Source: Paracoccaceae bacterium
GTDB taxonomy: Bacteria; Pseudomonadota; Alphaproteobacteria; Rhodobacterales; Rhodobacteraceae
Assembly (NCBI GenBank): GCA_965215545.1
Contig: OZ244066.1
Span: 585,358 to 649,357 of the forward strand
DNA length: 64,000 nucleotides
Reading direction: 5' to 3'
Under the pieces are notes generated by a model that was not told the origin of the DNA, did no database searches, and saw only the letters and a list, made by a program, of their open reading frames with translations. The position numbers and the translations under genes are program-made. This document shows positions 27,340 to 49,501 of this stretch, piece by piece. Position 1 is the stretch's first letter. Each line of letters opens with the position of its first letter.

Positions 27340-27349
27340 CCCCCCCCCC
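27340..27349. repeat. C10 homopolymer tract
   Basis: Counted directly. It lies between the ISAs1 right end and a 25-codon methyltransferase-like N-terminal fragment. Confidence 0.95.
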
Positions 27350-27680: not shown

Positions 27681-29513
27681 ATGGTCCAGATGACGTTGGA
27701 CCGGGCAGGGCTTGCGGAGTTTGTTGACCGTGACGAAGGCGATGAACCCCCGGTCTTTGTCGGGCGGGATCCGGTCTTTGCCGACATTCTAGCCACGGCC
27801 GACCGGAGTTGGATGGACAGGGATGGAGTGCAGGGTCGCGCGAAGGATACCCGCATCATCCAGGGTGCCCCCGGGGCCGGCAAGAGCACGATCCTCGCCG
27901 AGCTGGCAGCCCGCACCAGGGCCGGCGGCGGGGGGACGGGTAGCATCAGGACCGAGGTCCTCACGCTGAGTTCCGGTCGCATCCGCGGACCCATCGACAT
28001 CCTCGGACCGCTGGCGGCACTGGTCGATGCCGCTGCCGCCAAGGACTTCCTGACCCGCTACCAGACGACCTCCAGCCGCGGTGCCCATCTCGGCGCCTTT
28101 GGGTCATCGATCGGGGTCGAACGGGCCACGACCACAACCTCGTATGCGCCCGAGCCGACCCTGACGGCCTTCCATGATTGGGTCCGCGATTCAACGGGGG
28201 GGCTGCCGGGCCCCATCATCATAGCCATCGACGAGGCCCAGAACATGCGGTTTGGCAATGATGATCCCCGCACCAGCCTCTTGCGGTGCATCCATGAGGC
28301 CGACCCGCCCCTGCCGTTCACTCTTGTGCTCGCCGGCCTCGGCGACACCGACACCCGGGCCACGGACATGGGCCTGACCCGGGGCAAGATGCTCCACACC
28401 ATCGGGGCACTGGACCCGAACGAGGTCACCGATCTCACCCATCGGTGGTGCGGGCACTTCGGCCTGGACCCAACTGGCCATGCGGACGCTCTCGCTGCTC
28501 TTGCCGGTCCCTGTGAGGGGTGGCCGCGCCACCTCCACTTTGCCCTGCAGGCCCTCGGTCGGGACATCCTGCGCACCCAGGACGCAGGACCCGGGGCGCT
28601 CGCCGCGGTGGACTGGGAGCGGGTGGCCACAGCGGCGGCTTTCAGCCGCCTCAACTACTATCGGGGCCAGCAGCGCGGCGCCATGGCAGCGTGCGCCGCC
28701 CTTGTCGGTGCCGTTCTGGACGATCTCGGGGCTGCGGCCGCGCCGTCTCTCCTACGCCGTTCCCATGTCATCAACGGCCTCCATCGCCATACCCTGGCCC
28801 ATCCCGATGCCAGCGCGTGGCAGATCCCCAAGGGCATGGATGCCGACTCCCTGGCCGACCATCTCTTCCACCGTGGTGTCCTGCAGGAGACCCCGGATGG
28901 CTCCCTGACCTGTCCCATCCCCTCCTTTCGCTCCTATCTTGTCAGGGAGGCAGCTCGGGTGGAGGTCGGGACGCTCCTTGCCGGCGACCAGGGCCCGTCG
29001 CCGGTCGACCGGGAGGCTGACCGGATCCTGGCTGCCACCGAGCCTCACACCGAGGACGAGATCGCCCGCTGGACGGCCCTGGCATCCACCTGGCGCCGCC
29101 ACTGTGGGGCCCTGGCGACCATCGCCGGGGATACGGCCTGCCTGGCGACCGTCAAGGGTGCCCCCACCGACACCGATCGGGCCCGAGCCACCACTGTCTT
29201 GGCCACCCTCGATGCCGACGGGACGACCCCGCCCGCAGCTGGGGTCGTCCCGGACCTGCCCCACTCTCTCCCACACGCCGAGCGGGCGGCTGCGGCACTG
29301 GAGGGAATGATCGACACGGTCCGTGATGCGGCGAGGGCCATCCGTGATGGTGAGGCCGATCCCTGGCGCGCCGACACACTCGGCGCGGTCGTGAACCTGC
29401 CTGAAGAGGCGGTGGCGGCCAGCCCGGAGGAGCAGCTCGCATGGGCCCTCGAGCACCTGACCGGGGCACCACCGGAGGCACCGGAAGACTCCAGCCCTTC
29501 GATGGATCCCTGA
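27681..29513 (+). CDS. P-loop AAA ATPase (AAA_22/ExeA/ORC-like), paralogue 2, intact
   Basis: 610 aa. Walker A GAPGAGKST, Walker B IIIAIDEAQ, LVLAGLGDTDTRATDMGLTRGK, CEGWPRHLHFALQALG. About two-thirds aa identity by eye with 4973-6753. Confidence 0.75.
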   Translation: MVQMTLDRAGLAEFVDRDEGDEPPVFVGRDPVFADILATADRSWMDRDGVQGRAKDTRIIQGAPGAGKSTILAELAARTRAGGGGTGSIRTEVLTLSSGRIRGPIDILGPLAALVDAAAAKDFLTRYQTTSSRGAHLGAFGSSIGVERATTTTSYAPEPTLTAFHDWVRDSTGGLPGPIIIAIDEAQNMRFGNDDPRTSLLRCIHEADPPLPFTLVLAGLGDTDTRATDMGLTRGKMLHTIGALDPNEVTDLTHRWCGHFGLDPTGHADALAALAGPCEGWPRHLHFALQALGRDILRTQDAGPGALAAVDWERVATAAAFSRLNYYRGQQRGAMAACAALVGAVLDDLGAAAAPSLLRRSHVINGLHRHTLAHPDASAWQIPKGMDADSLADHLFHRGVLQETPDGSLTCPIPSFRSYLVREAARVEVGTLLAGDQGPSPVDREADRILAATEPHTEDEIARWTALASTWRRHCGALATIAGDTACLATVKGAPTDTDRARATTVLATLDADGTTPPAAGVVPDLPHSLPHAERAAAALEGMIDTVRDAARAIRDGEADPWRADTLGAVVNLPEEAVAASPEEQLAWALEHLTGAPPEAPEDSSPSMDP

Positions 29514-29609: not shown

Positions 29610-30975
29610 ATGATACACTCTCCGAGTGTATTATTTGGGGCCCGTGCCACCCTGAAGAGTCCATGGGCTTGACGCACCCCGCCTCGGCTGTCTGACAGCC
29701 GGCATGCGGCGCGGTCACGCCGTGTGTGACCTCTCCATTGCCAACCGTCAGGACCGGCGTCAGGACCATGACCACGCCACCATCGCCTCCACCGACCGAG
29801 TCGGGTCTGACCACGGTCTCGATAGCGGCGACCGACACCCTCCCCGGACCCACACCCTGGCCCCGCGCCTTTCAACAGGACACTGCTGACTCGGTGTTTC
29901 TGACGTTGTATTCTCGGCTGCATGAGAATCGGTCTTCGACATTACGCCCACGAGACGGTTGACTGGCTGAAGGCGGGGCTTGCGGCCAGTGACTGCACGC
30001 GCACCTTTCTGGCCCGCGGGCTCTGCGAGCGCGAGGGCTGGCGGAACGCGAAGGGCGAGCTGTGTCTTGCCTCGGCCCGGGCCGCCCTTCCGAAACTGTC
30101 CTCGGCCCCCATCGACCGCTGCCGCCGGCAGCGGTCGATGATGGCGACGCACCACCCCCGGGGCGATGCCGGCTGTCCCGGCGGGCGCCTCCGCGACTGG
30201 ATCCGCTCGCCATCGCACGGCATCCTCGGCGGGTTCACCGTCGGTGCCGCTGCCTGGCACCACAGGGCGCGTGACCGCCACATCGGCTGGTCGCAGGCGG
30301 CGCGGGACGCCAACATCGGGCGCGTGGTCAACAACGACAGGTTCCTTTTGCTGCCGGCCCGAGCGCCGCTCGACTGGCTGCTGCTGACCACCGGGGGCGG
30401 GCCCGACGCGGCGAACGTGCTCCGCGTCGTCACATGGTACGAGAAGCGATGGCTGATCGAGGAATGGTTCGCGGCCCTCAAGGTCGGAACGCGGATCAAG
30501 GACCGCAGGCTCAACGCCGGCGCCGACGGTCGTCCACCCCGACGCGATCCATGTCCTCGCCGTGCACATGGCGAAGCCCAGCCACCGCAGGCAGCGCGGC
30601 CCGGACCAGACGGTCGCGGCGTTCGCGGTCAACACCGCACGCCTCGCCGGCTTCATCCCCTCGACAGGGCAACCCACTCCGGGAACCAGGAAACTCTGGG
30701 AAGGATCCCTGATCCTGTCACTCTTCGTCGAACATCACGGGGCCATGCGCGAATACGCAAACACCGAGTCAACAGTGTTACATTGAAAGGGGCGGGACCC
30801 CCCGGATCCGGGGCCAACACGCAGGGGCTGTCGGCATGGCTCTGGCGACCCTCAGCGGGGGGTCCTGTCTGCAGGCGGTCGGCGGTGCCTGGCCACGCGA
30901 GGGCCCGACAGGTGACCGTCCGCGGGGATGGGACCGGCATCCGGCCCCAATTCCCCCTCTCGATCGCGGCCGCTA
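29610..30975 (+). mobile_element. Defective IS4-family-like element with DUF4338-like N-terminal module and long (about 250-300 bp) imperfect TIRs
   Basis: The core TIR motif GGCCCCGCGCCTTTCAACAGGACACTGCTGACTCGGTGTTT (29859-29899) is matched in inverted orientation at 30759-30799. Weaker similarity extends outward on both sides. Boundaries are +/- 30 bp. Confidence 0.5.
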
Positions 30976-30986
30976 ACTGGGACTAG
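29922..30986 (+). pseudogene. Internally deleted transposase remnant (DUF4338-like N-terminus fused to an IS4 YREK C-terminus)
   Basis: ETVDWLKAGLAASDCTRTFLARGLCEREGW and AAAWHHRARDRHIGW..VVNNDRFLLLP are DUF4338-like. VVTWYEKRWLIEEWFAALKVGTRIKDRRL is the Y-R-E-K signature of IS4/Tn5-type DDE transposases. The DDE core is missing. Confidence 0.55.
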
Positions 30987-31554
30987 CGGCCGTCTGGAAG
31001 CAGGCTTGGGCTTGCTCCCGTTGATTGGGCTGACAGTGCCGCCACCGCCCCCATCCGTCACAACCTCGCCATTCCGTTTCCTCAACTCACCAACAACAAC
31101 CTGCGCCACATATGTCTTCGATGAGACCAGGCTCAGGAATGTTGCGGGACTGGGGATCAGGCCGCGGCGGGTGACCTTCCCCGCGTGCAACCAGACCCCA
31201 TGGACAAGATCGCCGTCGGCGAAGTCGACTCGCCGGGTGTCCTGGGTGCCATCGGGGTATCCGTAACCCCTCACGCTGAAACACAGAGTGGCGTTATTCC
31301 AGGCGCCCGGGTAATCTCCAGTGACATCTGACAAGTTGTTGATACCCGTTGTGGTTATGGGGGTAGCGCCTCGAAACGTGACCCTGTCGTGGGCGACATC
31401 ACTCACAAAGAATAGTGAGAAAGTATCTTTCTCCGCCACGCCGTCCGGGCAGGCCGCTTGTCCAATCGTCTGCGCCTCGGCCTCACCCGCGGGCAGGGCG
31501 AGGCCCAGCGTGAGGGCGACCCAGGGCGGGGGTGAGACCGACCGTCAGGCGGTC
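30852..31554 (-). pseudogene. Secreted-protein paralogue disrupted at both ends
   Basis: Downstream of the IS block the minus strand reads FDRLT.., then the signal-peptide end VALTLGLALPAGEAEAQ, then the ORF AEKDTFSLFFVSD.... It needs a frameshift in a C-run near 31525. Its own start and leader lie 4.75 kb away (36317-36345, ATG mutated to ATA). The 3' end runs into the IS4-like TIR. Confidence 0.45.
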
Positions 31555-31681
31555 AAAAAAAGGGGATTATATACTTGAAAACAAGAAATGAAATTAGCCG
31601 ATAAGAATCAAAATGTTATGCTTTGATCACCACCAATGAGCAAAGATAGCTTATGTCAATGATTATATTGGAGTAATCTAG

Positions 31682-32608
31682 GGCCTGTTGACACTCCCCC
31701 GCTCCGCTGCGATCCTGCCCCCCAACGACCGCCCGGAACGGGCGGCATCCCTTGGCAGGAGCCGACCCATGACCCGCGACCGATCCCGTCTTGCCGACCG
31801 CATGTGGCACCGCATCGAGTCTCTCTGTCCCGGCAAGGTCGGCGACCCCGGCGGCACCGCCGCCGCCAACCGTCTCTTCGTCGAGGCCGTTCTCTGGCCC
31901 GGGATCTGAGTCCCCTGGCGCACCGGTTCGCCCGGGCGTGACCGGCCCGCCCGCTGCGGCCCGACCGCCTGATGCACGGCAGGGGAATTCGGTCTTCCAG
32001 CGCTTCCGCCGCTGGGCTAGGAAGGGTGTCTTCGAACGCATTTTCAGGGCGTTATCGGAGGCGTTCGATCTCGAATACGTCGGCATCGACGGCACCATCG
32101 TCACGGCGCACGCCAGGGCCGCCGGCACCCCATCGGGAGCATGACCGGTGGGGGAACCTGCGATCAGGGGATCGGCCGCCCAGAGGGGCGGTCTGACCAC
32201 CAGGATCGTGGCTGTCACCGATGCCCTTGGTTACCTTGTCCACTTCGTCATCCGGCCCGGTCAGGCCCATGACCCCGGAGGCGGCCAGCGGATGGGGGAC
32301 AGACGCGGTGCTGGCGGGCCTCGATGGCGATGCCCTCATTGCCGACACGGCCTTCGATGCCGACAGCCTCCTTGCCGATCGCGAAGCACGCGGCGTCAAG
32401 GCCGCACTCCCGGCCCAACGCAACCGCACGGCGATTCGGGACCATGATCGGGACATGTCTGCCTGGCGGCACCCGATCGAGACCGTCTTTGCCAAACTCA
32501 AGGCGTTCCGGGGGATGGCGATGCGCTTCGACACGACGCTGACAAGCTTCGCGGCCTTCATTGCCCTGGTGGCCGGGGTGATTGCAGCCCGGTACGTGTC
32601 AACAGGCC
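31682..32608 (+). mobile_element. IS5-family element (IS427/IS1031-like), degenerate
   Basis: Inverted ends are GGCCTGTTGACAC / GTGTCAACAGGCC, flanked by CTAG on both sides. The transposase (MTRDRSRLADRMWHRIESLCPGKVGDPGG..., NSVFQRFRRWARKGVFERIF, ...AFDADSLLADREARGVKA...IETVFAKLKAFRGMAMRFD) is split over three frames and has an internal stop. Confidence 0.7.
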
Positions 32609-32612
32609 CTAG

Positions 32613-33497
32613 GCTGTGTACTTAAATATTGACAGATCTGTCTGGAGCTGCGAGAGGAGCCAAAAAACCATCAGGCAGGAGCAGACCCATGAGCGGACAC
32701 CGCCACGACATGACCGATGCCGAGTGGGCGATCCTCCGCTCGGTGCTTCCCCAGAGACACCAGGGACCCCGCCGGATCCATGACCGAAGGGTCATGGATG
32801 GTATCTTCTTCGTGTTGCGCACCGGCATCCCCTGGCGGGATCTCCCCGAACGCTACGGTCCCCACTCGACCTGTTTCAATCGCTACAACCGCTGGAGCAG
32901 GAACGGCACCTGGGCCCGGATCATGCGGGCCCTGGCCGAGCGGACGGATGGTGATGGAGGCCCGGTCGGACCCGTGCGCCTGCGCATGCTGGACTCCTCC
33001 GTCGTGCGGGCCCACAAGCATGCTGCCGGGGCCCGCCGCGACGGCCCGCCGCCGCCGATCGGCCGGAGCCGTGGCGGTCGGACGACCAAGGTCCATCTCG
33101 CCCTCAGCGGGACGGACGCGGTGCAGGCCCTGGTCCTGACCCCGGGTCAGGCCTCGGACTGTGCCCAGGCCGAGGCGCTGCTTGCCGACCTTCAGCCGGG
33201 GACGACCGTCCTCGGTGACAAGGCCCATGATGCCAATGCTGTCGTCCGGTGCATCGAACGGGCGGGGGGCCAGGCGAACATTCCCTCCCGGTCCTGCCGC
33301 AAGATCCCCCGGCCCTTTGACCGCACCCTGTACAAGGGTCGCAATCGGATCGAGCGGTTCTTCGGCAGGATCAAGGAATTCCGTCGCGTTGCCTCGCGCT
33401 ACGACAAGACCGCCCGCAATTTCCTCTCGGCAATCCAGCTGACGGTCAGTCGCTTCCTGCTGCGGGCTCTGGCGAAGCAATTAAATGGGTACACAGC
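32613..33497 (+). mobile_element. IS5-family element, apparently intact, inserted next to the first at the same CTAG
   Basis: Ends are GCTGTGTAC / GTACACAGC, flanked by CTAG (32609-32612 and 33498-33501). Contains one uninterrupted transposase ORF. Confidence 0.7.
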
Positions 33498-33501
33498 CTA
33501 G
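32689..33501 (+). CDS. IS5-family DDE transposase
   Basis: 270 aa from ATG 32689. MTDAEWAILRSVLPQR...RVMDGIFFVLRTGIPWRDLPERYGP (DUF4096-type N-terminus), LDSSVVRAHKHAAG, VLGDKAHDAN, NRIERFFGRIKEFRRVASRYDK. Confidence 0.85.
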   Translation: MSGHRHDMTDAEWAILRSVLPQRHQGPRRIHDRRVMDGIFFVLRTGIPWRDLPERYGPHSTCFNRYNRWSRNGTWARIMRALAERTDGDGGPVGPVRLRMLDSSVVRAHKHAAGARRDGPPPPIGRSRGGRTTKVHLALSGTDAVQALVLTPGQASDCAQAEALLADLQPGTTVLGDKAHDANAVVRCIERAGGQANIPSRSCRKIPRPFDRTLYKGRNRIERFFGRIKEFRRVASRYDKTARNFLSAIQLTVSRFLLRALAKQLNGYTA

Positions 33502-33781
33502 AAATTACTTTTTCAAGTATATAATCCCCAAAAAAAAAGGGGATTATATACCTAAGTGCCACAGTTTCCGACGGCCCGATCCGCCTGAACTGACCGCCAG
33601 ATCCGTCAGGCATCCTTATCCTCCACGACCCTCACTTGCTGGAATGCTGACCGGATCAGGTCAGCAGGCGAGGTGTCAATGCGGACATCCTTGTCCAGTT
33701 CGGCCTTGCTCGGCTGGTAGTCCGATGGCTTGAGGTGGACAGTGGGGCGGGTTTCGGTTTTCTTGGTCATGGTTTTCCTTC

Positions 33782-35196
33782 TTAGAGCCAGTCACGAATC
33801 CGGTCTTCATGGATTGCCTTGCCATTGTACGGATCCCGCATGGGCGGCATGTGGAGACGCCGATCATCAAAATAGTCTTCGATGGACCAGAGGTTCATGC
33901 GCTTGTAGTCCATGATGCCGATACTGCATGTCCCGGCATTGGTGGCTTCACGGATAGCTTCCTTCGAAGTTACCCTGTCGAGCGTGATGTAACAGCCGAT
34001 GGCGGCGTTGTCCCGCTGGATGACATGCAGGAAGTCGTGCAGGTTGCCAAGATTGAACTTGCCGCCTTTGGCTTGAGCCAACGCCAGATCGGAATCCAGA
34101 TCATCAGGGCGAACTGCCAGTTTCCCGCGGCCGTCCACCCCGCCATCGCCGACCTGCTTGGTGTTGGGGGCAAAGCCGGGAAGGCGGGTGACGGCCCAAC
34201 TTTCGAACTGGAACGGGTTGTCCTTGGCCATCAAGCGAGCCGAATACATATCGACCGGGATGCCCTTGGCTGGGATGCTCATACCCATGCGCTTTTGCCG
34301 AATGAGGTCAATGGCAAAGGCGGAGATGTCGATACCAATGAAACGTCGGTTGAGGTTACGAGCGGATTCAACTGCCGTGCCGCACCCGCAGAAGGGATCC
34401 ATGACAACATCGTTGGGGTTGCTGGAAGCACGAATGATGCGGTCAAGGAGTGCAATGGGCTTTTGGGTGGGGTAGCCGACTCGTTCTTTGGATTGAGAGT
34501 TTATGTATGGAATATCCCATACATCGCGCATATTGACATAATTGAAAACGCCCTTATCGTCTTTAAAAAATTCGGCATTTCCTGCTCCATAATTTATGAT
34601 CCCTGGCTTGCGGCTTTTGCTTTTTGTGTAGGCTTTTTCTTTCAGAACATTGAAACATGAATTTGGACCTTTTCCATAAAACAGAATGACATCGTGTTTC
34701 TTGGAAAAATGATTTTTGCCCGCCCCTCCTGTCCGATAATGCCAAATGACTTCATTCCTGAATCCCCCCCCCCCTGCTTGACAATAATTTCGTCCATCAA
34801 GGCTTTCAGGTAGTGTGAGGCTGTCGGGTCGCAGTGCAGGTAGATGGAGCCGGTGGGTTTCATGAGGCGGTGCATCTCTGCCAATCTCTCGGCCATGTAG
34901 GTGAGATAGCCAAGCATACCGCACTCGCCCAGCATGGTATGCAGACCAAGAATGGCGCGATGAGCTGGGTGAGCGATGGCATCCAGCCGGTTGGCCGCTG
35001 CATCATCCCAGACCCATGTGTCGTTGAAGGCGCGGTACTGGGCGTCGATACCCCCGCTTTTGCCAAACAGGACATTGTACTGCGCCTTGGAGTTGAAGGG
35101 CGGGTCGAGATAGATCAGGTCGATGCTCTGATCATCCCAATGTTGCATCCAGTCCAGACAATCTCCGTAGTAGAGTGTGTCCAGGTCGGGACTCAT
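33782..35196 (-). pseudogene. N6/N4 DNA methyltransferase with a C-terminal Mrr-like nuclease-fold domain; out of frame at a G11 tract (phase-OFF)
   Basis: N-terminal ORF: LYYGDCLDWMQHWDDQSIDLIYLDPPFNS (motif IV DPPF). C-terminal ORF: FRNEVIWHYRTGG..., VVMDPFCGCGTAVESA (motif I), GDGGVDGRGKL...LAQAKGG (Mrr-like). The two frames meet at the G11 run (34764-34774). 12 or 9 G would restore ...KQGGGGFRNEV.... The ATG at 35196 overlaps the transposase stop (ATGA). Confidence 0.8.
34764..34774 (-). repeat. G11 (coding-strand) homopolymer tract inside the methyltransferase gene
   Basis: Counted directly (C11 on the plus strand). It is the exact point of the frame change. Confidence 0.95.
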
Positions 35197-36179
35197 GCAG
35201 CGCACTCCTGCGCTCCGCTGTCGAGGCCATTGTCGGCCTTCAGGGCTGCATAGGTCAGCCGCTTGCCCTGCATGCGCTCGACGGTCAGTTCCAGTTGCTG
35301 GATCGTATCGCCCTCGCGCATGTTATGACGGCCAGCGAACTCGTTGATGTAGCGTTGCAGGTGCTTGGGACTCATCTTGTGATAGGTGCCCTTGTAGCCG
35401 CGCTTGAACATCGACCAGAAGGACTCGATGCCGTTGGTGTGGACAAGACCCTTCACATATTCCCCCGATGAATGCTTGACCGACTCGTGATGGAAGCCCT
35501 CGATGCCCTGATAACCCTTGTGGTCGTCGGTGTACAAGTCGGAACCCGGGGCGACTGTCTCGGCCACAAAGCCTTGCAGGGTTGCCTTGTCGGTGCTCTC
35601 GACCGTCCGGGCCACGACCGCATTGGTCTCCCGATCCTTGACCCCGGCAACGATTTCCTTGCCGACTGCCCCGCGTCCGGTCATGTCATCCCGCTTCGAC
35701 TTCGGCATGTTCTTGCGCTTGCCACCCATGTAGGTCTCATCGGCCTCGGCCGGGCCGGTGAAGAGGGGAAGTCCCGCCTCATAGGTCTTGCGGAGGCGGT
35801 GGGCCAGATGCCAGGCCGATTTCTGGGTGATCTCCAAATCCCGATGCAGTTTCATCGAACTGACGCCCTTGAGACTGGTGGTGACCAGATAGGCAGCGAT
35901 GGCCCATGTCTGGTATCCGAGTTTGCTGGACTGCATGACCGTGCCGGTCTTGACGCTGAACCGGGGCTTGTCGGCACAGTCCCGGCAACGATGGGTCATG
36001 CTGTGATGCTTGATGTTGCACTGGACATTGTCCGATCCGCAGTGGGGGCACCGGGGACCATCCGGCCAGACAATCGACTCGATCCATGTGCGGGCAGTTT
36101 CGTCATCGGGGAACATCCTGAACAACCTGGGCAGGCTGATCGTCTTGCGGTAGTGCTTGCCGGGGGCTTCGTGGGCCAT
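35193..36179 (-). CDS. IS1595-family transposase
   Basis: Start at ATG 36179 (RBS AAGGAG). N-terminal zinc ribbon WPDGPRCPHCGSDNV...HRCRDC. DDE-type core ..EADETYMGGK...LYTDDHKGY...HTNGIESFWSMFKRGYKGTYHKMSPKHLQRYINEF. Confidence 0.85.
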   Translation of the reverse strand: MAHEAPGKHYRKTISLPRLFRMFPDDETARTWIESIVWPDGPRCPHCGSDNVQCNIKHHSMTHRCRDCADKPRFSVKTGTVMQSSKLGYQTWAIAAYLVTTSLKGVSSMKLHRDLEITQKSAWHLAHRLRKTYEAGLPLFTGPAEADETYMGGKRKNMPKSKRDDMTGRGAVGKEIVAGVKDRETNAVVARTVESTDKATLQGFVAETVAPGSDLYTDDHKGYQGIEGFHHESVKHSSGEYVKGLVHTNGIESFWSMFKRGYKGTYHKMSPKHLQRYINEFAGRHNMREGDTIQQLELTVERMQGKRLTYAALKADNGLDSGAQECAA

Positions 36180-36316
36180 GGTCAGTCTCCTTGTTGCGAG
36201 TCTGATATATGGCACTTTGCTGTAAATTTCAAGGGGTCAATGGCACCTTTCTCTATTTTTCCCGGCCGCCGGGCCGGAACAAGGCTGGCACTTAGGTATA
36301 TAATCCCCAAAAAAAA

Positions 36317-36447
36317 GGGGGGGGGGGCAGTGTCAAGCGGGTTATGGTCTCTCTCCGGGTTGGGTGGCCACCCGGTGGCACGCAACGGCCACCGGGTGGA
36401 TCATCATGCTGGGACGGCGATAGCACGAGCGGGGGCCGGCTGGCAAG
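36317..36447 (-). repeat. Leader cassette copy 1 (orphaned by the IS insertion): G11 tract + start region + 5'-UTR hairpin
   Basis: 131 nt, near-identical to 37326-37457 (about 6 differences by eye). The start codon is mutated to ATA. Hairpin at 36368-36399. Confidence 0.85.
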
Positions 36448-36812
36448 AGCGGAATCCCGCCCGCATCCGCCGCTAGGGCTGAGTGTCCGCGCCCGCCGTG
36501 CCGCTGCGGGGGCAGTCGGTGTCAGCCAGGCGGCGGTCCCTTGACCCCGTGCCGCTGTCGACGATCGCCTGGCGCCGGGGTGCGCGCGTCGGTCACCAGT
36601 GTCCCCCTGTCGATCGTGCGACCCCCTGTGATGGCCCTGTCGTCGGCTGTCATGGTTCGCTGCCCTGGCGGGGCGGCCCATCGGGGGCAACATGTGCCTG
36701 GCTGGCGCCGGCGTGCGACGAGATCGGCACGGATTGGCAGTGGGCGGGCCAGCAAATGGCCGCAATTCGATGACGACGGGAGACCCGCTTGCAGTGGCCA
36801 CCGCCCCCCGGA

Positions 36813-37355
36813 TCAGTCGTTATCCCGGATGGGAATGCGCAGATGACGGGTCGGGTTGCGCATGATGACGTGGATGGCATTCTCCCCTGTGTCCCGGACA
36901 CTGTTCTCGCGGGGGGTCAGCAGGCCAGACGTAAAGCCTTCGGCCTCGGTCATGGTGTTGCACCGCTTGAACGCGCCGGCAGCCTGCCAGCGGTCGCCCT
37001 GAAGGCCGCTGGCCCCGGCAACATTGTTGGGCAGGCAGTTGGTCGCGCTGGCATCGCACGGGGTGGTGTCGAAAATTTCGGCGCAGAAGGGAATCCGGTA
37101 CTCCCGGGGTGTCTCGAAACTGCCGAAGTTGTCGCAGTTTTCCAGGATGAACTGGATGATCACACCGCCATCAGTACCTTCTGTTGCCGGCGTGCCCGCC
37201 ATCGGGAAGCCCTGGTATAACTTGATATGGGAGGCATTGCACTGTTCGGCCAGCGCCGGGCCGGTCGGCAGGGCCAGGAACAGGGTGACAGCCAGGGCGA
37301 CCGCGAGGGCCGTCAGGCGGTCAAAGGGGGGGGGGGGCAGTGTCAAGCGGGTCAT
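36813..37355 (-). CDS. Cys-rich secreted protein with a poly-Pro (C12-encoded) signal-peptide N-region
   Basis: ATG at 37355 preceded by GGAGAGAG. MTRLTLPPPPFDRLTALAVALAVTLFLALPTGPALA|EQC is a signal peptide. The mature part has 7 Cys. The longer 36813-37604 ORF has no support upstream of this ATG. Confidence 0.6.
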   Translation of the reverse strand: MTRLTLPPPPFDRLTALAVALAVTLFLALPTGPALAEQCNASHIKLYQGFPMAGTPATEGTDGGVIIQFILENCDNFGSFETPREYRIPFCAEIFDTTPCDASATNCLPNNVAGASGLQGDRWQAAGAFKRCNTMTEAEGFTSGLLTPRENSVRDTGENAIHVIMRNPTRHLRIPIRDND

Positions 37356-37457
37356 GGTCTCTCTCCGGTTTGTGTGGCCACCCGGCGGCAAGCAACGGCC
37401 ACCGGGTGGATCATCATGCTGGGACGGCGATAGCACGAGCGGGGGCCGGCTGGCAAG
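37326..37457 (-). repeat. Leader cassette copy 2 (functional): G12 tract + start codon + 5'-UTR hairpin
   Basis: Direct repeat of 36317-36447. G12 at 37326-37337 encodes PPPP in frame. Hairpin at 37378-37409. Confidence 0.85.
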
Positions 37458-37975
37458 GGGGGTGTGGCCGCCGGCGCCTCGGCCCACTTGCCTGGCCCCG
37501 GTGGTCAGGCGGGGGCCGGTCCAGGCGACAGCAGCACCGGTGACCGCGAGGGCGGGGCTGGCCCGGTCAAGCCGGGTGCCGGTGCAGGAACTGTGGGCTG
37601 GCACCGATGAGGTCAGGCGGAAGCCTGGATGGGCCCGGAATTGGCGGACCTGTCGGAACGGTTGGCGGACATGTTCCTTTCATCGGCTGGGGGTCAAGGG
37701 GGTCGGTGCTGCACGGTGCTGGTGCAGGGAGTCATGCAGCGGTCGTCATCGACAGGGCGGACAGGACAGTTGGTTTGAGGGTGGCCGGTAGTGGGGAAGC
37801 GGAAGCGTCCGGGTCGTTCGTTCCAGCGAGGGCGGCAAACCGGGCGGCATCGATATCGGGACGGTCCTCTTCGGTCGCCGGGGACGCGGGAGGGACAGGT
37901 TTCAAGGAGTGCTGTGAACCCATCGTCCACACCGGAGACGATGAGCTCCAGAGCCAACGGGGTCGCCCCACCTCA

Positions 37976-39544
37976 TCAGGGGAGGACAGCTGGCTCCGCC
38001 CGGACTTCGAGAAGGTTGCGGGCGTCGCGCCCGCAGGCGATGGCAACGAGATGGACAGTCTGGCCGTGCTGGGTGTCGGCATAGCCCCGGTCCCGCATCT
38101 GGGCGTGCGCGGCATCAAGGGCCGCCTCGGCACCATCGTGGCTGTCCGCCATCTTGAATTCGAGGATGAAGACCTGGCCGCCGAGATGGATGACCATGTC
38201 GGCCCGGCCATGGCTGGTGGCGGCCTCGGCGTGCACATCGACGCCGATGGCACGGAAGACCATGTGCAGGAGACTGGCATACCAGGCCTCGTAGCGGGCG
38301 AGGTCGCCTGTGGTGTGCCACTGGTAGGGAATGCTGGCCAGCCAGGCCTTGAGGGTCTCGGCGAAGCCTGTGAAGTCATTGGCTTCGAGCCGGTCCCGCA
38401 GGGTGTCCCCCTCATCGAGGGGCACCCGGCCCTGCGGGTTCAGGGCCGCCAGCAGATGATCGTTGAGGCTGAGCTTGACTTCCTGATTGGGATAGTCGAG
38501 CCGGTAGAGGGTGCGGTGGCCCTGGCGGATCTCGTCCGTGATGGTGAGGTAGCCGGTCTGGAACAGCAGGGCCTCGGGGCTGATGGCATCGACATCGAAC
38601 TTCGAGACCAGGGACCGGTCGGCCAGGCATCCCTCCAGGTCCAGGGGGCTGATGGACGTCCTCTTCAACGTCTCGAACAGGAAGGTCGGCGAGCCGGTCT
38701 CGAACCAGTGGGGTTTGAACTCCCGGGTGTCCAGCAGCAACAGCACATCGAAGGGATTGTAGAGGCGCTCTTCACCCAGCCAGCTGTAGCCATTGTACCA
38801 GGTGCGGATCGCCTCGCGATCGAGGCCTGTAAGCTCCGGCGCAAACACCGTGTCGAGATCGGCCTCGGTGTAGCCGCAGAGCGTGGCAAAGCGGGGATCG
38901 AGACTGATGTCCTTGAGGTTGTTCAGGCCCGAGAACAGGCTGACCCTGGAGACCATGCTGATGCCGGTGACGAACACGAAGCGGACATGGGCGGCGCTGT
39001 CCTTGATGATGCCGTAGAAACCCCGCAGATAGTCGCGGTTGGCCCGGGCCCGGGCGGGGTCGTGGAGGGCATCGAGGATGGGCTTGTCGTACTCGTCGAC
39101 GAGGACCACGACGCGCTGGCCGGTCTGGTGATGGAGGCGGTCCAGGAGATTGCGCAGGCGGCGGGGGCCGGTATCCGAAGTGGCGGCTGGTGGGAGGCCG
39201 GCATTCCGCTCAATGGCCTCCAGCTGTTCGATGATGTCGCCTTCGATCTCCTCCGGTCGGTCATACTTGCCATCAAAGCTCAGGCGTACCACCGGGTGGG
39301 TGACCGACCAGTCCCAGTGTGGGTGGATGGCGAGCCCCTGGAAGAGGGCTTCCTCGCCGGCAAACAGGGCCCGGAGCGTGTCGACCAGCAGACTCTTGCC
39401 GAAGCGGCGGGGGCGGGACAGGAAGTAGTGCCGCCCCTCTTCCACTAACCGACCGATAAGGGGTGTCTTGTCGACATAGTAGAACCCCTCGCTTCGGATG
39501 GTCGCAAAATCCTGGATCCCGATGGGCAGGTGTTGGCGGGTCAT
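37976..39544 (-). CDS. AAA-ATPase_like (DUF1703-type) N-terminal domain + PD-(D/E)XK nuclease (PDDEXK_9-type) C-terminal domain protein
   Basis: 522 aa. LPIGIQDFATIRSEGFYYVDKTPLI..YFLSRPRRFGKSLLVDTL.., VVLVDEYDKPI, and the C-terminus SHGRADMVIHLGGQVFILEFK. This is the well-known widespread family. Confidence 0.85.
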   Translation of the reverse strand: MTRQHLPIGIQDFATIRSEGFYYVDKTPLIGRLVEEGRHYFLSRPRRFGKSLLVDTLRALFAGEEALFQGLAIHPHWDWSVTHPVVRLSFDGKYDRPEEIEGDIIEQLEAIERNAGLPPAATSDTGPRRLRNLLDRLHHQTGQRVVVLVDEYDKPILDALHDPARARANRDYLRGFYGIIKDSAAHVRFVFVTGISMVSRVSLFSGLNNLKDISLDPRFATLCGYTEADLDTVFAPELTGLDREAIRTWYNGYSWLGEERLYNPFDVLLLLDTREFKPHWFETGSPTFLFETLKRTSISPLDLEGCLADRSLVSKFDVDAISPEALLFQTGYLTITDEIRQGHRTLYRLDYPNQEVKLSLNDHLLAALNPQGRVPLDEGDTLRDRLEANDFTGFAETLKAWLASIPYQWHTTGDLARYEAWYASLLHMVFRAIGVDVHAEAATSHGRADMVIHLGGQVFILEFKMADSHDGAEAALDAAHAQMRDRGYADTQHGQTVHLVAIACGRDARNLLEVRAEPAVLP

Positions 39545-48319: not shown

Positions 48320-48934
48320 CTACTGGGTCGACCCGTCGGTCTCGCCCCACTCGTCGAGTGTCGCACAGCCCTTGCCGCCGGTAAACAGGAAGTGGGCGCT
48401 GCCGGCGACACCGTGATTCGATCCTGGATTCAGCCGAAAGTCCTGCACCACCAGCTCACCGGGGCTGCGCTGGATATTGCTGAGATTGCGATTGCTCCAG
48501 ATTTGGGCACCAGCCTTGGGGCGGACCTCGATGAGGTTCGCGCCGAGCACGCCGCCGGCAAAGCCAATTCGATTGGCAGCGGGGTCCTGCCACTGGTTTC
48601 TGTTCGAAGCCGTGGCGCGCCACTCCCGGTTGGAGAATGCCGTCGCCCGGAGATCGCTGGTTGCCTGAATCCAATAGCCAGAGATCTGAAAGCTCGCCCG
48701 CATCACGCTGGGATCGGTGCTCGAGAAGATGATCTTCATGCGGCCGAGCGTGGCGGCCCCACCGTAGCCGTCCACGACCTGGCCGCCGTTGACTGATGCC
48801 ATCCGGACAGTGCATTTGTTGCGGTCGCAGGTAGCCTGGGCGTGCGCCTCACCCGCGGGCAGGGTCAGTGTGAGGGCCAGCAGGGCGGTGGCCAGAAGGG
48901 TCAGGGGGGGGGGCGGGTGGATCAAGTGTCGCAT
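48320..48934 (-). CDS. Secreted protein with a poly-Pro (C10-encoded) signal-peptide N-region
   Basis: RBS GGAGGA. MRHLIHPPPPLTLLATALLALTLTLPAGEAHA|QATC is a signal peptide. The leader style matches the 37355 gene, but the mature part is unrelated. Confidence 0.55.
   Translation of the reverse strand: MRHLIHPPPPLTLLATALLALTLTLPAGEAHAQATCDRNKCTVRMASVNGGQVVDGYGGAATLGRMKIIFSSTDPSVMRASFQISGYWIQATSDLRATAFSNREWRATASNRNQWQDPAANRIGFAGGVLGANLIEVRPKAGAQIWSNRNLSNIQRSPGELVVQDFRLNPGSNHGVAGSAHFLFTGGKGCATLDEWGETDGSTQ
48904..48913 (-). repeat. G10 tract (plus strand) inside codons 7-10 of the 48934 gene
   Basis: Counted directly. Encodes P-P-P-P in frame. Confidence 0.95.
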
Positions 48935-48976
48935 GGAGAATCCTCCAGATCAAGCTGTGGCTGCTCCCTTCTATCA

Positions 48977-48986
48977 GGGGGGGGGG
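48977..48986 (-). repeat. Second G10 tract, 43-52 nt upstream of the 48934 start codon
   Basis: Counted directly. The local context TCA-G10-CGGG duplicates that of the intragenic tract. Confidence 0.95.
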
Positions 48987-49501
48987 CGGGCCGCCGGCAA
49001 GGGGCAATGTTCGGATGGGGCCATGACTGCGCGTGCGCTGGGTGTTGACGATTTTGGCGGTATGTGCCTATGCAGGCAAGGCACTTGTACACGGAAAGGG
49101 GCGCAATATGGTGACCGGGATAATGCGTTTCGGCATCGCCGATGGCACCTGTTGGCCAAGGCAGTCCGGGCGGGTGATGCCGTCTTTGTTTTTCCGGTCA
49201 GTCCCGCCAGCGATGGCAGGATTGCCGCCAACGACATCGCGGAACAGGCGGAACGGGTCATCATGAAGCGTCATTGCCACTCTCGATGCGGCGGATTGCG
49301 AACTGGCCCATGTGGTCGATGTCTGGCTGGACAATCCTCGGGATGTCACGAGTCTCGATGCCGTGTTCGAATGCCATTTCCATGATCACCCACCTGCCCG
49401 CTCAGCAGCCCGGTCCACGCTCGTGGTTGACGCGAAGGTCCAGATGGGCGTGATCACATCCGGCCCCGACGAGCCGGAACGCGGCTGCATGCAACGAGAT
49501 C

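Follow-up and report, generated by a model that had tools for sequence, protein, structure and literature searches.

Contingency loci are a standard feature of bacteria that infect or colonize vertebrates. In Neisseria PilC, a poly-G tract in the part of the gene that encodes the signal peptide switches translation of an exported protein ON or OFF; one or two loci of a single family are controlled in this way, and we know of no PilC cassette that is shared by unrelated cargo. The vlp genes of Mycoplasma hyorhinis have a conserved promoter with poly-A and a signal peptide in front of divergent mature regions, and encode lipoproteins of one repeat-rich family in one genus. The outer membrane protein (OMP) genes of Helicobacter pylori carry 5' CT repeats or homopolymers in the signal-sequence region, and their frame status varies between strains. 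Bordetella fim and Haemophilus hif are switched by repeats in the promoter spacer. The poly-C tract of Neisseria opc also lies in the promoter, between -35 and -10, and the Opa genes have CTCTT repeats in the leader-peptide coding region, their paralogs being reshuffled mainly by intragenomic recombination (PMC3960869). Here we analyze a promoter-leader cassette with a long cytosine run, two copies of which lie in a 64,000-nucleotide (nt) stretch of the Paracoccaceae contig OZ244066.1 (the window) and head genes for putative secreted proteins of unrelated families, numbered here as cargo families 1 to 3. As judged by comparison of homologous sequences, the cassette probably mediates slipped-strand translational phase variation, as a reusable leader in front of secreted-protein genes.

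The arrangement resembles Opa in that a hypermutable repeat lies in the signal- or leader-peptide coding region, where slippage would turn the frame ON or OFF, and in that several paralogs per genome have a common 5' end (four MTRLTL-polyproline leaders here). It differs in its repeat, a C-run of 8-33 nt rather than a pentamer, in its hosts, uncultured marine metagenome-assembled genomes (MAGs) rather than a human pathogen, and in its cargo, at least three families without detectable homology rather than one, so that the working is Opa-like but the family is not Opa. With PilC it has in common the homopolymeric G/C tract in the signal-peptide coding part of the gene and, probably, the ON/OFF switching of translation. 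As in vlp, a promoter-leader block with a homopolymer switch precedes divergent bodies, although the vlp tract is in the promoter. The repeats of the H. pylori OMP genes, unlike those described here, are mostly dinucleotides and belong to a related superfamily without an exchangeable promoter-leader cassette. What appears to be new is the use of one leader for unrelated cargo families, the very long tracts and the setting in uncultured marine MAGs.

Organization of the cassette

The cassette and the intact gene that it heads comprise the following features.

37323..37462, minus strand: cassette copy 2, with promoter-like region, 5' untranslated region (UTR), Shine-Dalgarno sequence (SD), ATG, first codons, C12 and TTT; direct repeat
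36313..36452, minus strand: cassette copy 1, with parts as in copy 2 and the start codon mutated to ATA
37451-37456 (copy 2) and 36441-36446 (copy 1), minus strand: -35-like TTGCCA
37428-37433 (copy 2) and 36418-36423 (copy 1), minus strand: -10-like CTATCG, after a 17-nt spacer
37378-37409 (copy 2) and 36368-36399 (copy 1), minus strand: hairpin from RNA folding, 12-bp GC-rich stem and 8-nt loop
37359-37366 (copy 2) and 36349-36356 (copy 1), minus strand: SD GGAGAGAG, read from the sequence
37353-37355 (copy 2, ATG) and 36343-36345 (copy 1, ATA), minus strand: start codon
37326-37337, minus strand: poly-C tract of copy 2, C12 (G12 on the plus strand), in frame, codons 7-10 (PPPP)
36317-36327, minus strand: poly-C tract of copy 1, C11, read from the sequence
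36813..37355, minus strand: intact cargo-2 gene, an open reading frame (ORF) for a 180-amino acid (aa) protein, 100% identical to database protein P0036

A repeat search of 30000-39000 returns 36313-36452 and 37323-37462 as a direct repeat of 140 nt with 94% identity, and pairwise alignment resolves the differences into five substitutions and one difference in tract length. The first-pass annotation had recognized two near-identical direct copies, as is found here, but had put their length at about 131 nt. The homology starts sharply at CTTGCCAG, its 5' edge coinciding with the -35-like hexamer, and extends through the C-run; beyond an insertion in copy 1 it picks up again for 13 nt (GACCGCCTGACGG, 31542-31554 matching 37310-37322). 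The window block has 120 nt upstream of the tract and 16 nt after it. The combination TTGCCA-17-CTATCG is taken as the putative promoter by its similarity to TTGCCA-17-TATCAG of a related locus, L030. In both copies the start codon is followed by ACC CGC TTG ACA CTG (TRLTL) and then by the C-run. Motif coordinates and folding bear out the leader, hairpin, ribosome-binding site (RBS), start, MTRLTL and C-run that had been described for each copy; the tract, previously placed four codons after the ATG, actually starts at codon 7.

The hairpin has a minimum free energy of -30.6 kcal/mol (z = -1.7) in copy 2 and -32.2 kcal/mol (z = -2.2) in copy 1, the single arm difference being an A-U to G-U change. 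It matches no Rfam family, either across the whole window at gathering thresholds or in 36250-37550 at E<=1. Its sequence occurs at these two sites only within the window, on which ground a REP-like dispersed repeat (repetitive extragenic palindrome) was rejected; an intrinsic terminator was rejected for want of a U-run.

Immediately 3' of the copy-2 stop codon, 36782-36809 holds an imperfect inverted copy (21/28 nt) of the first codons and tract of the gene, with the exact 10-mer GACCCGCTTG and a C6/G6 run. Many family members have a short motif after the stop codon, TGA TCC GGGG(GG) CGG. Together with the inverted copy it could reflect pairing between the 5' and 3' ends of the RNA, or a recombination scar.

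The intact gene and its protein

Copy 2 had been described as an in-frame C12 heading the intact gene 36813-37355, which the ORF and the identity to P0036 confirm. The product consists of MTRLTLPPPPFDRLT, a hydrophobic region, the sequence ALA-EQC and a 143-aa, Cys-containing all-beta domain. Its N-terminus reads MTRLTL-PPPP-FDRLTALAVALAVTLFLALPTGPALA directly before EQCNASH. It has a positively charged region, a 16-residue hydrophobic core and an A-x-A site before a mature start (EQC or QQC) that is invariant in the family, and may be exported through a Sec-type signal peptide. A lipoprotein and a twin-arginine signal were considered and rejected, as the protein has neither a lipobox nor an RR motif. 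When the tract length of copy 2 is varied in silico, only C9, C12 and C15 yield a protein of 179-181 aa, and other lengths stop after 10-14 aa. Both wrong frames of this gene, and of a third secreted-protein gene at 48320-48934, meet a stop within a few codons.

The AlphaFold2 model of the cargo-2 protein (mean pLDDT 81) is an all-beta sandwich. A fold search of the PDB gives a weak match to the immunoglobulin (Ig)-like domains of staphylococcal MSCRAMM adhesins (E 5e-4, TM 0.36), and none of the three cargo proteins has a Pfam family. A search with the cargo-2 profile retrieves only 25 representative clusters out of 1.84 billion, the distant members likewise beginning with poly-proline. Within the family (L001-L024) the cysteines and the C-terminal NPTRxLRIPIxDxD motif are invariant. 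In many members the start assigned by gene callers is an internal Met (MAEQCNASH...), so that the signal peptide is hidden and annotation of both the family and its signal peptides is systematically wrong.

Tract lengths in related loci

Relatives were collected by scanning a genome collection with the cargo-2 alignment, which gave 24 loci, all in MAG records OZ24...; more came from exact protein look-up. Their labels are gammaproteobacterial (Arenicellales, Candidatus (Ca.) Poriferihabitans, Pseudomonadales, Ca. Azotimanducus, Ca. Azophilus and Pseudohongiella) or read Paracoccaceae and Aestuariivita, both of which are Alphaproteobacteria. An uninterrupted run of C8-C33, located 3-10 codons after the leader start, is present in 25/28 cargo-2 and cargo-1 loci from other MAGs. 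The remaining 3 are without a coding tract, 2 having lost the leader and 1 carrying a promoter G22 instead. The lengths are 8, 9, 10, 10, 10, 11, 11, 11, 12, 12, 13 (x5), 14, 14, 16, 16, 16, 18, 21, 21, 24, 24, 27 and 33. Relative to the conserved leader start, 13 loci are ON and 14 OFF, counting the two intact window genes, and a full-length downstream ORF is kept in 12 of the 14 OFF loci.

Close pairs differ at the tract itself. L010 (C16) and L014 (C24) are ~99% identical from -127 to +590. L012 (C14) and L013 (C21) belong to one genome and are 100% identical downstream, and L005 (C8) and L009 (C11) have near-identical flanks, with 97% identity around the tract. Among proteins, clusters at >=90% identity contain PPP/PPPPP, PPPP/PPPPPP and PPP/PPPP variants together with members called from an internal Met, and such calls are the expected signature of an out-of-frame allele. 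Additional runs in the flanks of L011 (G13) and L026 (C10) prove to be leaders of further secreted-protein genes. CCC accounts for 36-37% of proline codons elsewhere in these genes versus 100% within the tracts, and this exclusive use indicates selection on the nucleotide run rather than on proline.

The C12, C11 and C10 runs of the window are uninterrupted repeats of at least 8 nt in a 5' coding region, as in contingency loci. The length polymorphism with conserved flanks that marks such loci is seen for the family, the window locus being compared through paralogs only. The idea of slipped-strand ON/OFF switching, first raised from the window sequence, gains support from the C8-C33 homologues, the roughly 1:1 frame states and the proline differences between alleles, and a DNA-level switch of this kind appears likely.

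One leader on unrelated cargo

The mature domains of cargo 1 and cargo 2 show no similarity by BLASTP or hhalign, in agreement with the first-pass annotation, and homolog searches with these two proteins and with that of the third window gene yield three small families, which hhalign comparison of profiles finds mutually unrelated. The only region shared between profiles is residues 1-45 of families 2 and 3, that is, leader plus signal peptide. Since the cargo domains are unrelated, a mere segmental duplication extending into the mature parts was rejected.

The view that one leader has been combined with different cargo is strengthened by two further genes of the window's 3,134,200-bp chromosome, whose cassettes are known from protein sequences alone: P0018, with the leader MTRLTLPPPLDRLT (MTRLTLPPPL) on a second cargo-2 gene, and P0047, with MTRLTLPPPPLDRLT on a cargo-3 gene. 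The MTRLTL-polyproline leader accordingly heads at least four genes of three families on one chromosome (copy 1 with cargo 1, P0036 and P0018 with cargo 2, P0047 with cargo 3), and is not confined to the two places first seen. Other genomes repeat the pattern with leaders of their own. MSFHTIRMFP is found on cargo 1, 2 and 3 in contigs of 4,002,190 bp and 3,957,200 bp, and MK[T/A]LHNTPPPLAKLA on cargo 2 and 3 in a 3,218,294-bp contig. Because leaders recur across cargo within genomes, they track the genome and not the cargo.

In sliding-window MAFFT alignments, L012/L013 and L007/L016 have unrelated sequences ahead of the tract but agree at 90-100% once it begins, which puts recombination breakpoints at the tract. 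Divergent cargo can share a leader block of 110-150 nt that ends at the tract: in L014/L018 the leaders are 88-98% identical, the mature parts 45-82%. The window block is of similar size. L010 and L014 are gene units of 99% identity in unrelated flanks and different genera. In L023, a cargo-3 C-terminal fragment (~1950-2060, like window 48420-48600) lies directly after the cargo-2 stop, which suggests that the front of one cargo gene has been replaced by another cargo.

These observations allow a bolder proposal, which we put forward tentatively and hold to be somewhat less likely than its opposite. The block may be a genome-specific "socket", in which the poly-C run and a short conserved stretch after it also serve as the junction for recombination. 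Unrelated secreted-protein genes, passing by horizontal transfer between Alpha- and Gammaproteobacteria of one, apparently sponge-associated, community, would plug into it and be swapped there, giving a community-wide pool of phase-variable proteins that face host or phage. The proposal is drawn from the breakpoints at the tract or, in the window, 13 nt past it, from the genome-specific leaders, from the L010/L014 units and from the small number of cargo-2 clusters.

Leaders with other repeats

Two leader types use repeats outside the coding region. The MRTLRHMTRR leader has no coding tract, and instead has poly-G between promoter-like hexamers: TTGCCA-aacccat-G10-TATCAG with a 17-nt spacer in L030 (1154-1163), and TTGACA-aacccat-G22-TAAAGC with a 29-nt spacer in L023 (1382-1403). 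Here the switch would act on transcription, with cargo of the same family. The MSFHTIRMFP leader carries a 13-nt tandem repeat (CTCTCCACGGGGC or CTCTCACCGGGGC) that ends ~20-25 nt before the ATG, with 14.7 copies in L029 (990-1180) versus 5.4 in L031 (1106-1175). L029 also has 3.8 inverted copies of this repeat at 1-49. Three repeat devices on one gene class are hard to explain except as selected hypermutability.

The third secreted-protein gene of the window was found through its own C10 and adds a further combination.

48320..48934, minus strand: third secreted-protein gene, cargo family 3, with MRHLIH-PPPP-LTLL, signal peptide and beta-sandwich
48904-48913, minus strand: in-frame C10, codons 7-10 of this gene, from the homopolymer search
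48971..49000, minus strand: second C10 (48977-48986) within promoter-like TTGCCG-18 nt-TGATAG, a putative promoter

Simulated tract lengths give the full protein only for C10 and C13 (3n+1), and other lengths stop at or before 28 aa. The gene may therefore have a double switch, transcriptional and translational. The tracts of L030 and L023 and the second C10 of this gene resemble opc in lying between hexamers that look like a promoter; opc differs in that 48320-48934 apparently combines a promoter tract and a coding tract on one gene, if the promoter is assigned correctly. Cargo family 3 has five paralogs in the window's chromosome. Its AlphaFold model (mean pLDDT 79) is an all-beta sandwich, and the PDB search returns generic sandwiches only (TM <=0.36).

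G/C runs of at least 10 nt are enriched in the window (6 observed, 0.89 expected), whereas runs of at least 7 nt are depleted (9 observed, 27.7 expected), the run lengths being bimodal. This excess of long runs amid depletion excludes chance as the source of the tracts. One intergenic C10, at 27340-27349, lies ~330 nt upstream of a 610-aa AAA-ATPase-like ORF (27681-29513).

Proposed mechanism and alternatives

In the proposed mechanism, the block would be a reusable expression head made of a promoter, a 5' UTR of ~66 nt with a stable hairpin, an RBS, a start codon and five further codons. Prolines encoded by the C-run would separate the charged N-terminus of a Sec-type signal peptide from its hydrophobic core, and the run would be a hotspot for slipped-strand errors. 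Gain or loss of one or two C during replication would put the signal peptide and mature protein out of frame, where wrong frames stop within 1-4 codons, and a later slip would restore the frame. The outcome would be stochastic ON/OFF flipping for each gene and lineage, that is, a contingency locus, with copy 2 (C12) currently ON. Recombination at or just past the tract would have put the head in front of genes from at least three unrelated families, all of which encode small secreted all-beta proteins. Switching would then be expected at a high rate within living populations, and its benefit would be adaptive, for example by varying exposed proteins in a host or against phage.

Several observations weigh against this mechanism. 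A promoter and terminator scan of 36200-37700 with the E. coli consensus gives no match. The two window copies are paralogs and not alleles, their C11/C12 difference alone being weak proof, and no second strain of the organism was found in a plasmid collection or in metagenome scans with the ACCCGCTTGACACTGCCCCCCCC and MNQTNR leaders. All 7 tracts of at least 18 nt are multiples of 3 (L001, L007, L008, L013, L014, L016 and L018), and the 6 longest are all out of frame, which simple random switching does not predict; the post-hoc probability of this pattern is ~1e-3. Chance, under-calling of homopolymers, transcriptional slippage or a biological cause are all possible sources of it. The comparison genomes are long-read metagenome assemblies throughout, with contig names that resemble metaMDBG output, and homopolymer length is the weakest part of their consensus, so that individual ON/OFF calls, especially at C18 and above, may be off by 1-2 bases. 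Finally, the dN/dS ratio (nonsynonymous to synonymous substitution rates) of the mature part is high (median 0.66-0.76, in ON and OFF loci alike, with some pairs >1). This fits diversifying selection but also weak constraint; the cargo may be an exposed, fast-evolving binding protein.

The behavior of the longest tracts lends something to another explanation, which we regard as unlikely overall, that the C-run acts on RNA or protein: slippage of RNA polymerase would mix frames in the manner of a rheostat, or poly-proline would impose EF-P dependence or tune the signal peptide, or both. It is established that transcription can slip on long homopolymers and that PPP motifs depend on EF-P. Tracts of C21-C33 hardly allow a stable, meaningful frame to be encoded in DNA, the downstream ORFs of the six longest, nominally OFF, tracts are intact, and poly-C specifies proline in every frame. 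However, short tracts (C8-C14) predominate and are in frame about as often as not. The exclusive use of CCC points to selection on the nucleotide run, and in other leaders the repeat, being part of the promoter or 5' UTR, specifies no proline. Effects of this kind would in any case complement DNA-level switching rather than exclude it.

We give very little credence to the suggestion that the length differences and OFF states are artefacts of homopolymer assembly or sequencing, the genes being ordinary, constitutively expressed ones with a poly-proline linker. Homopolymer length is the main error mode of long-read assemblies, the source of all loci, and the 3n bias of long tracts is odd. Nevertheless, some sequences that otherwise match differ by 7-8 nt (C14/C21, C16/C24), far more than errors of +/-1 would give, the contigs have high coverage (55x to 1367x according to their names), and in-frame alleles differ by whole prolines; bimodal run lengths, the conserved position and the immediate stops in both wrong frames also speak against it. 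It is just as improbable that the tracts are neutral by-products, in which homopolymers spread by gene conversion through decaying, weakly constrained genes of genomes rich in insertion sequences (IS), with no function in switching. The multiply damaged pseudogene of copy 1, dN/dS of ~0.7, IS elements in or beside several leaders and gene fragments (the 3' flank of L023; truncated L011 and L017) would agree with decay. But the position of the tract is the same in three or four cargo families that are unrelated and under both Alpha- and Gammaproteobacteria labels, 12/14 OFF loci are intact apart from the frame, neither cysteines nor core motifs vary, and three repeat types converge on the same gene class. 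Slipped-strand phase variation with a reusable leader remains the reading we prefer.

The severed copy and its insertions

The gene once headed by copy 1 is now interrupted by the following features.

30852..31554, minus strand: body of the gene formerly headed by copy 1 (cargo family 1), a pseudogene, linked to its head by the cassette homology at 31542-31554
36309..36316, minus strand: T8 run (A8 on the plus strand), insertion target, adjoining the C-run; matching runs are A9 at 33530-33538 and A7 at 31555-31561
33539..36308, no strand assigned: element B, of the IS1595 family, bounded by perfect terminal inverted repeats (23 nt) and encoding a transposase (35193-36215, minus strand) and a methylase-Mrr protein, the gene of which is split
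31562..33529, no strand assigned: element A, IS-like, bounded by perfect terminal inverted repeats (20 nt) and containing ORFs for IS5-type transposase (Pfam DUF4096/DDE_Tnp_1)

That copy 1 is the severed head of the gene whose body lies at 30852-31554, with its ATG changed to ATA, is borne out by these features. The insertion is of IS1595 type and sits at the junction of C-run and T-run, as had been proposed, but it consists of two tandem elements rather than one. Relative to the intact relative L028, the signal-peptide region of the gene has gained one G (CTGG[G]TCGCC, 31515-31526), and comparison with P0030-P0032 places the ancestral C-terminus, CFQTAASPS*, at 30973-31002 in another frame. 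The reconstructed head with C11T8 reads into a stop. Copy 1 would thus have been inactive beforehand or have become so later (ATA, C11T8 stop), and would then have been split by two IS insertions and have gained further frameshifts.

Element B belongs to the IS1595 family by its transposase, N-terminal zinc ribbon, inverted repeats and A9/A8 flanks; Pfam matches are DDE_Tnp_IS1595 (2.3e-40), Zn_ribbon_IS1595 (8e-11), N6_N4_Mtase and Mrr_cat. The family makes an 8-bp target duplication, which cannot be delimited exactly inside a homopolymer. The three A-runs (7+9+8) add up to 24, or 3 x 8, and would be compatible with two 8-bp duplications of an original T8. Alignment of elements A and B finds only their 13-nt tips, GGGGATTATATAC, in common. 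Element A has no IS1595-type transposase of its own and may have been mobilized in trans. Neither the locus nor the IS1595-like element has a match in the plasmid collection.

Inside element B, a G11 on the coding strand (34764-34774) splits the N6_N4_Mtase and Mrr gene (34642-35205 and 33782-34924, minus strand); G12 or G9 would rejoin it into a single ORF of 473-474 aa. The methylase is a candidate for a phase-variable, transposon-borne methyltransferase that is now OFF. A DruA-like ORF (PF14236) adjoins the cargo-1 gene both in the window (29922-30986) and in L028 (728-1132), and may represent a conserved neighborhood or a shared remnant of a mobile element. In L001 (2200-2420) and L002 (1432-2408), an ORF for an IS3-type integrase (rve_3) ends ~90 nt upstream of the leader ATG. 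Together with the window insertions, these ORFs suggest that IS elements insert preferentially at leaders or take part in moving the units.

Implications

We found no report of contingency loci in the literature on sponge-associated or similar marine symbionts. If they switch as proposed, the tracts provide concrete marker loci, whose lengths can be read from existing HiFi data. If the proposed mechanism is true, uncultured Alpha- and Gammaproteobacteria of one host-associated community keep small secreted beta-sandwich proteins under stochastic ON/OFF control, by means of three repeat devices and a leader that can be reused on unrelated genes. This would imply that exposed proteins are under strong, fluctuating selection, for instance through recognition by the host, phagocytosis or attack by phage, in a symbiosis that is usually seen as stable.

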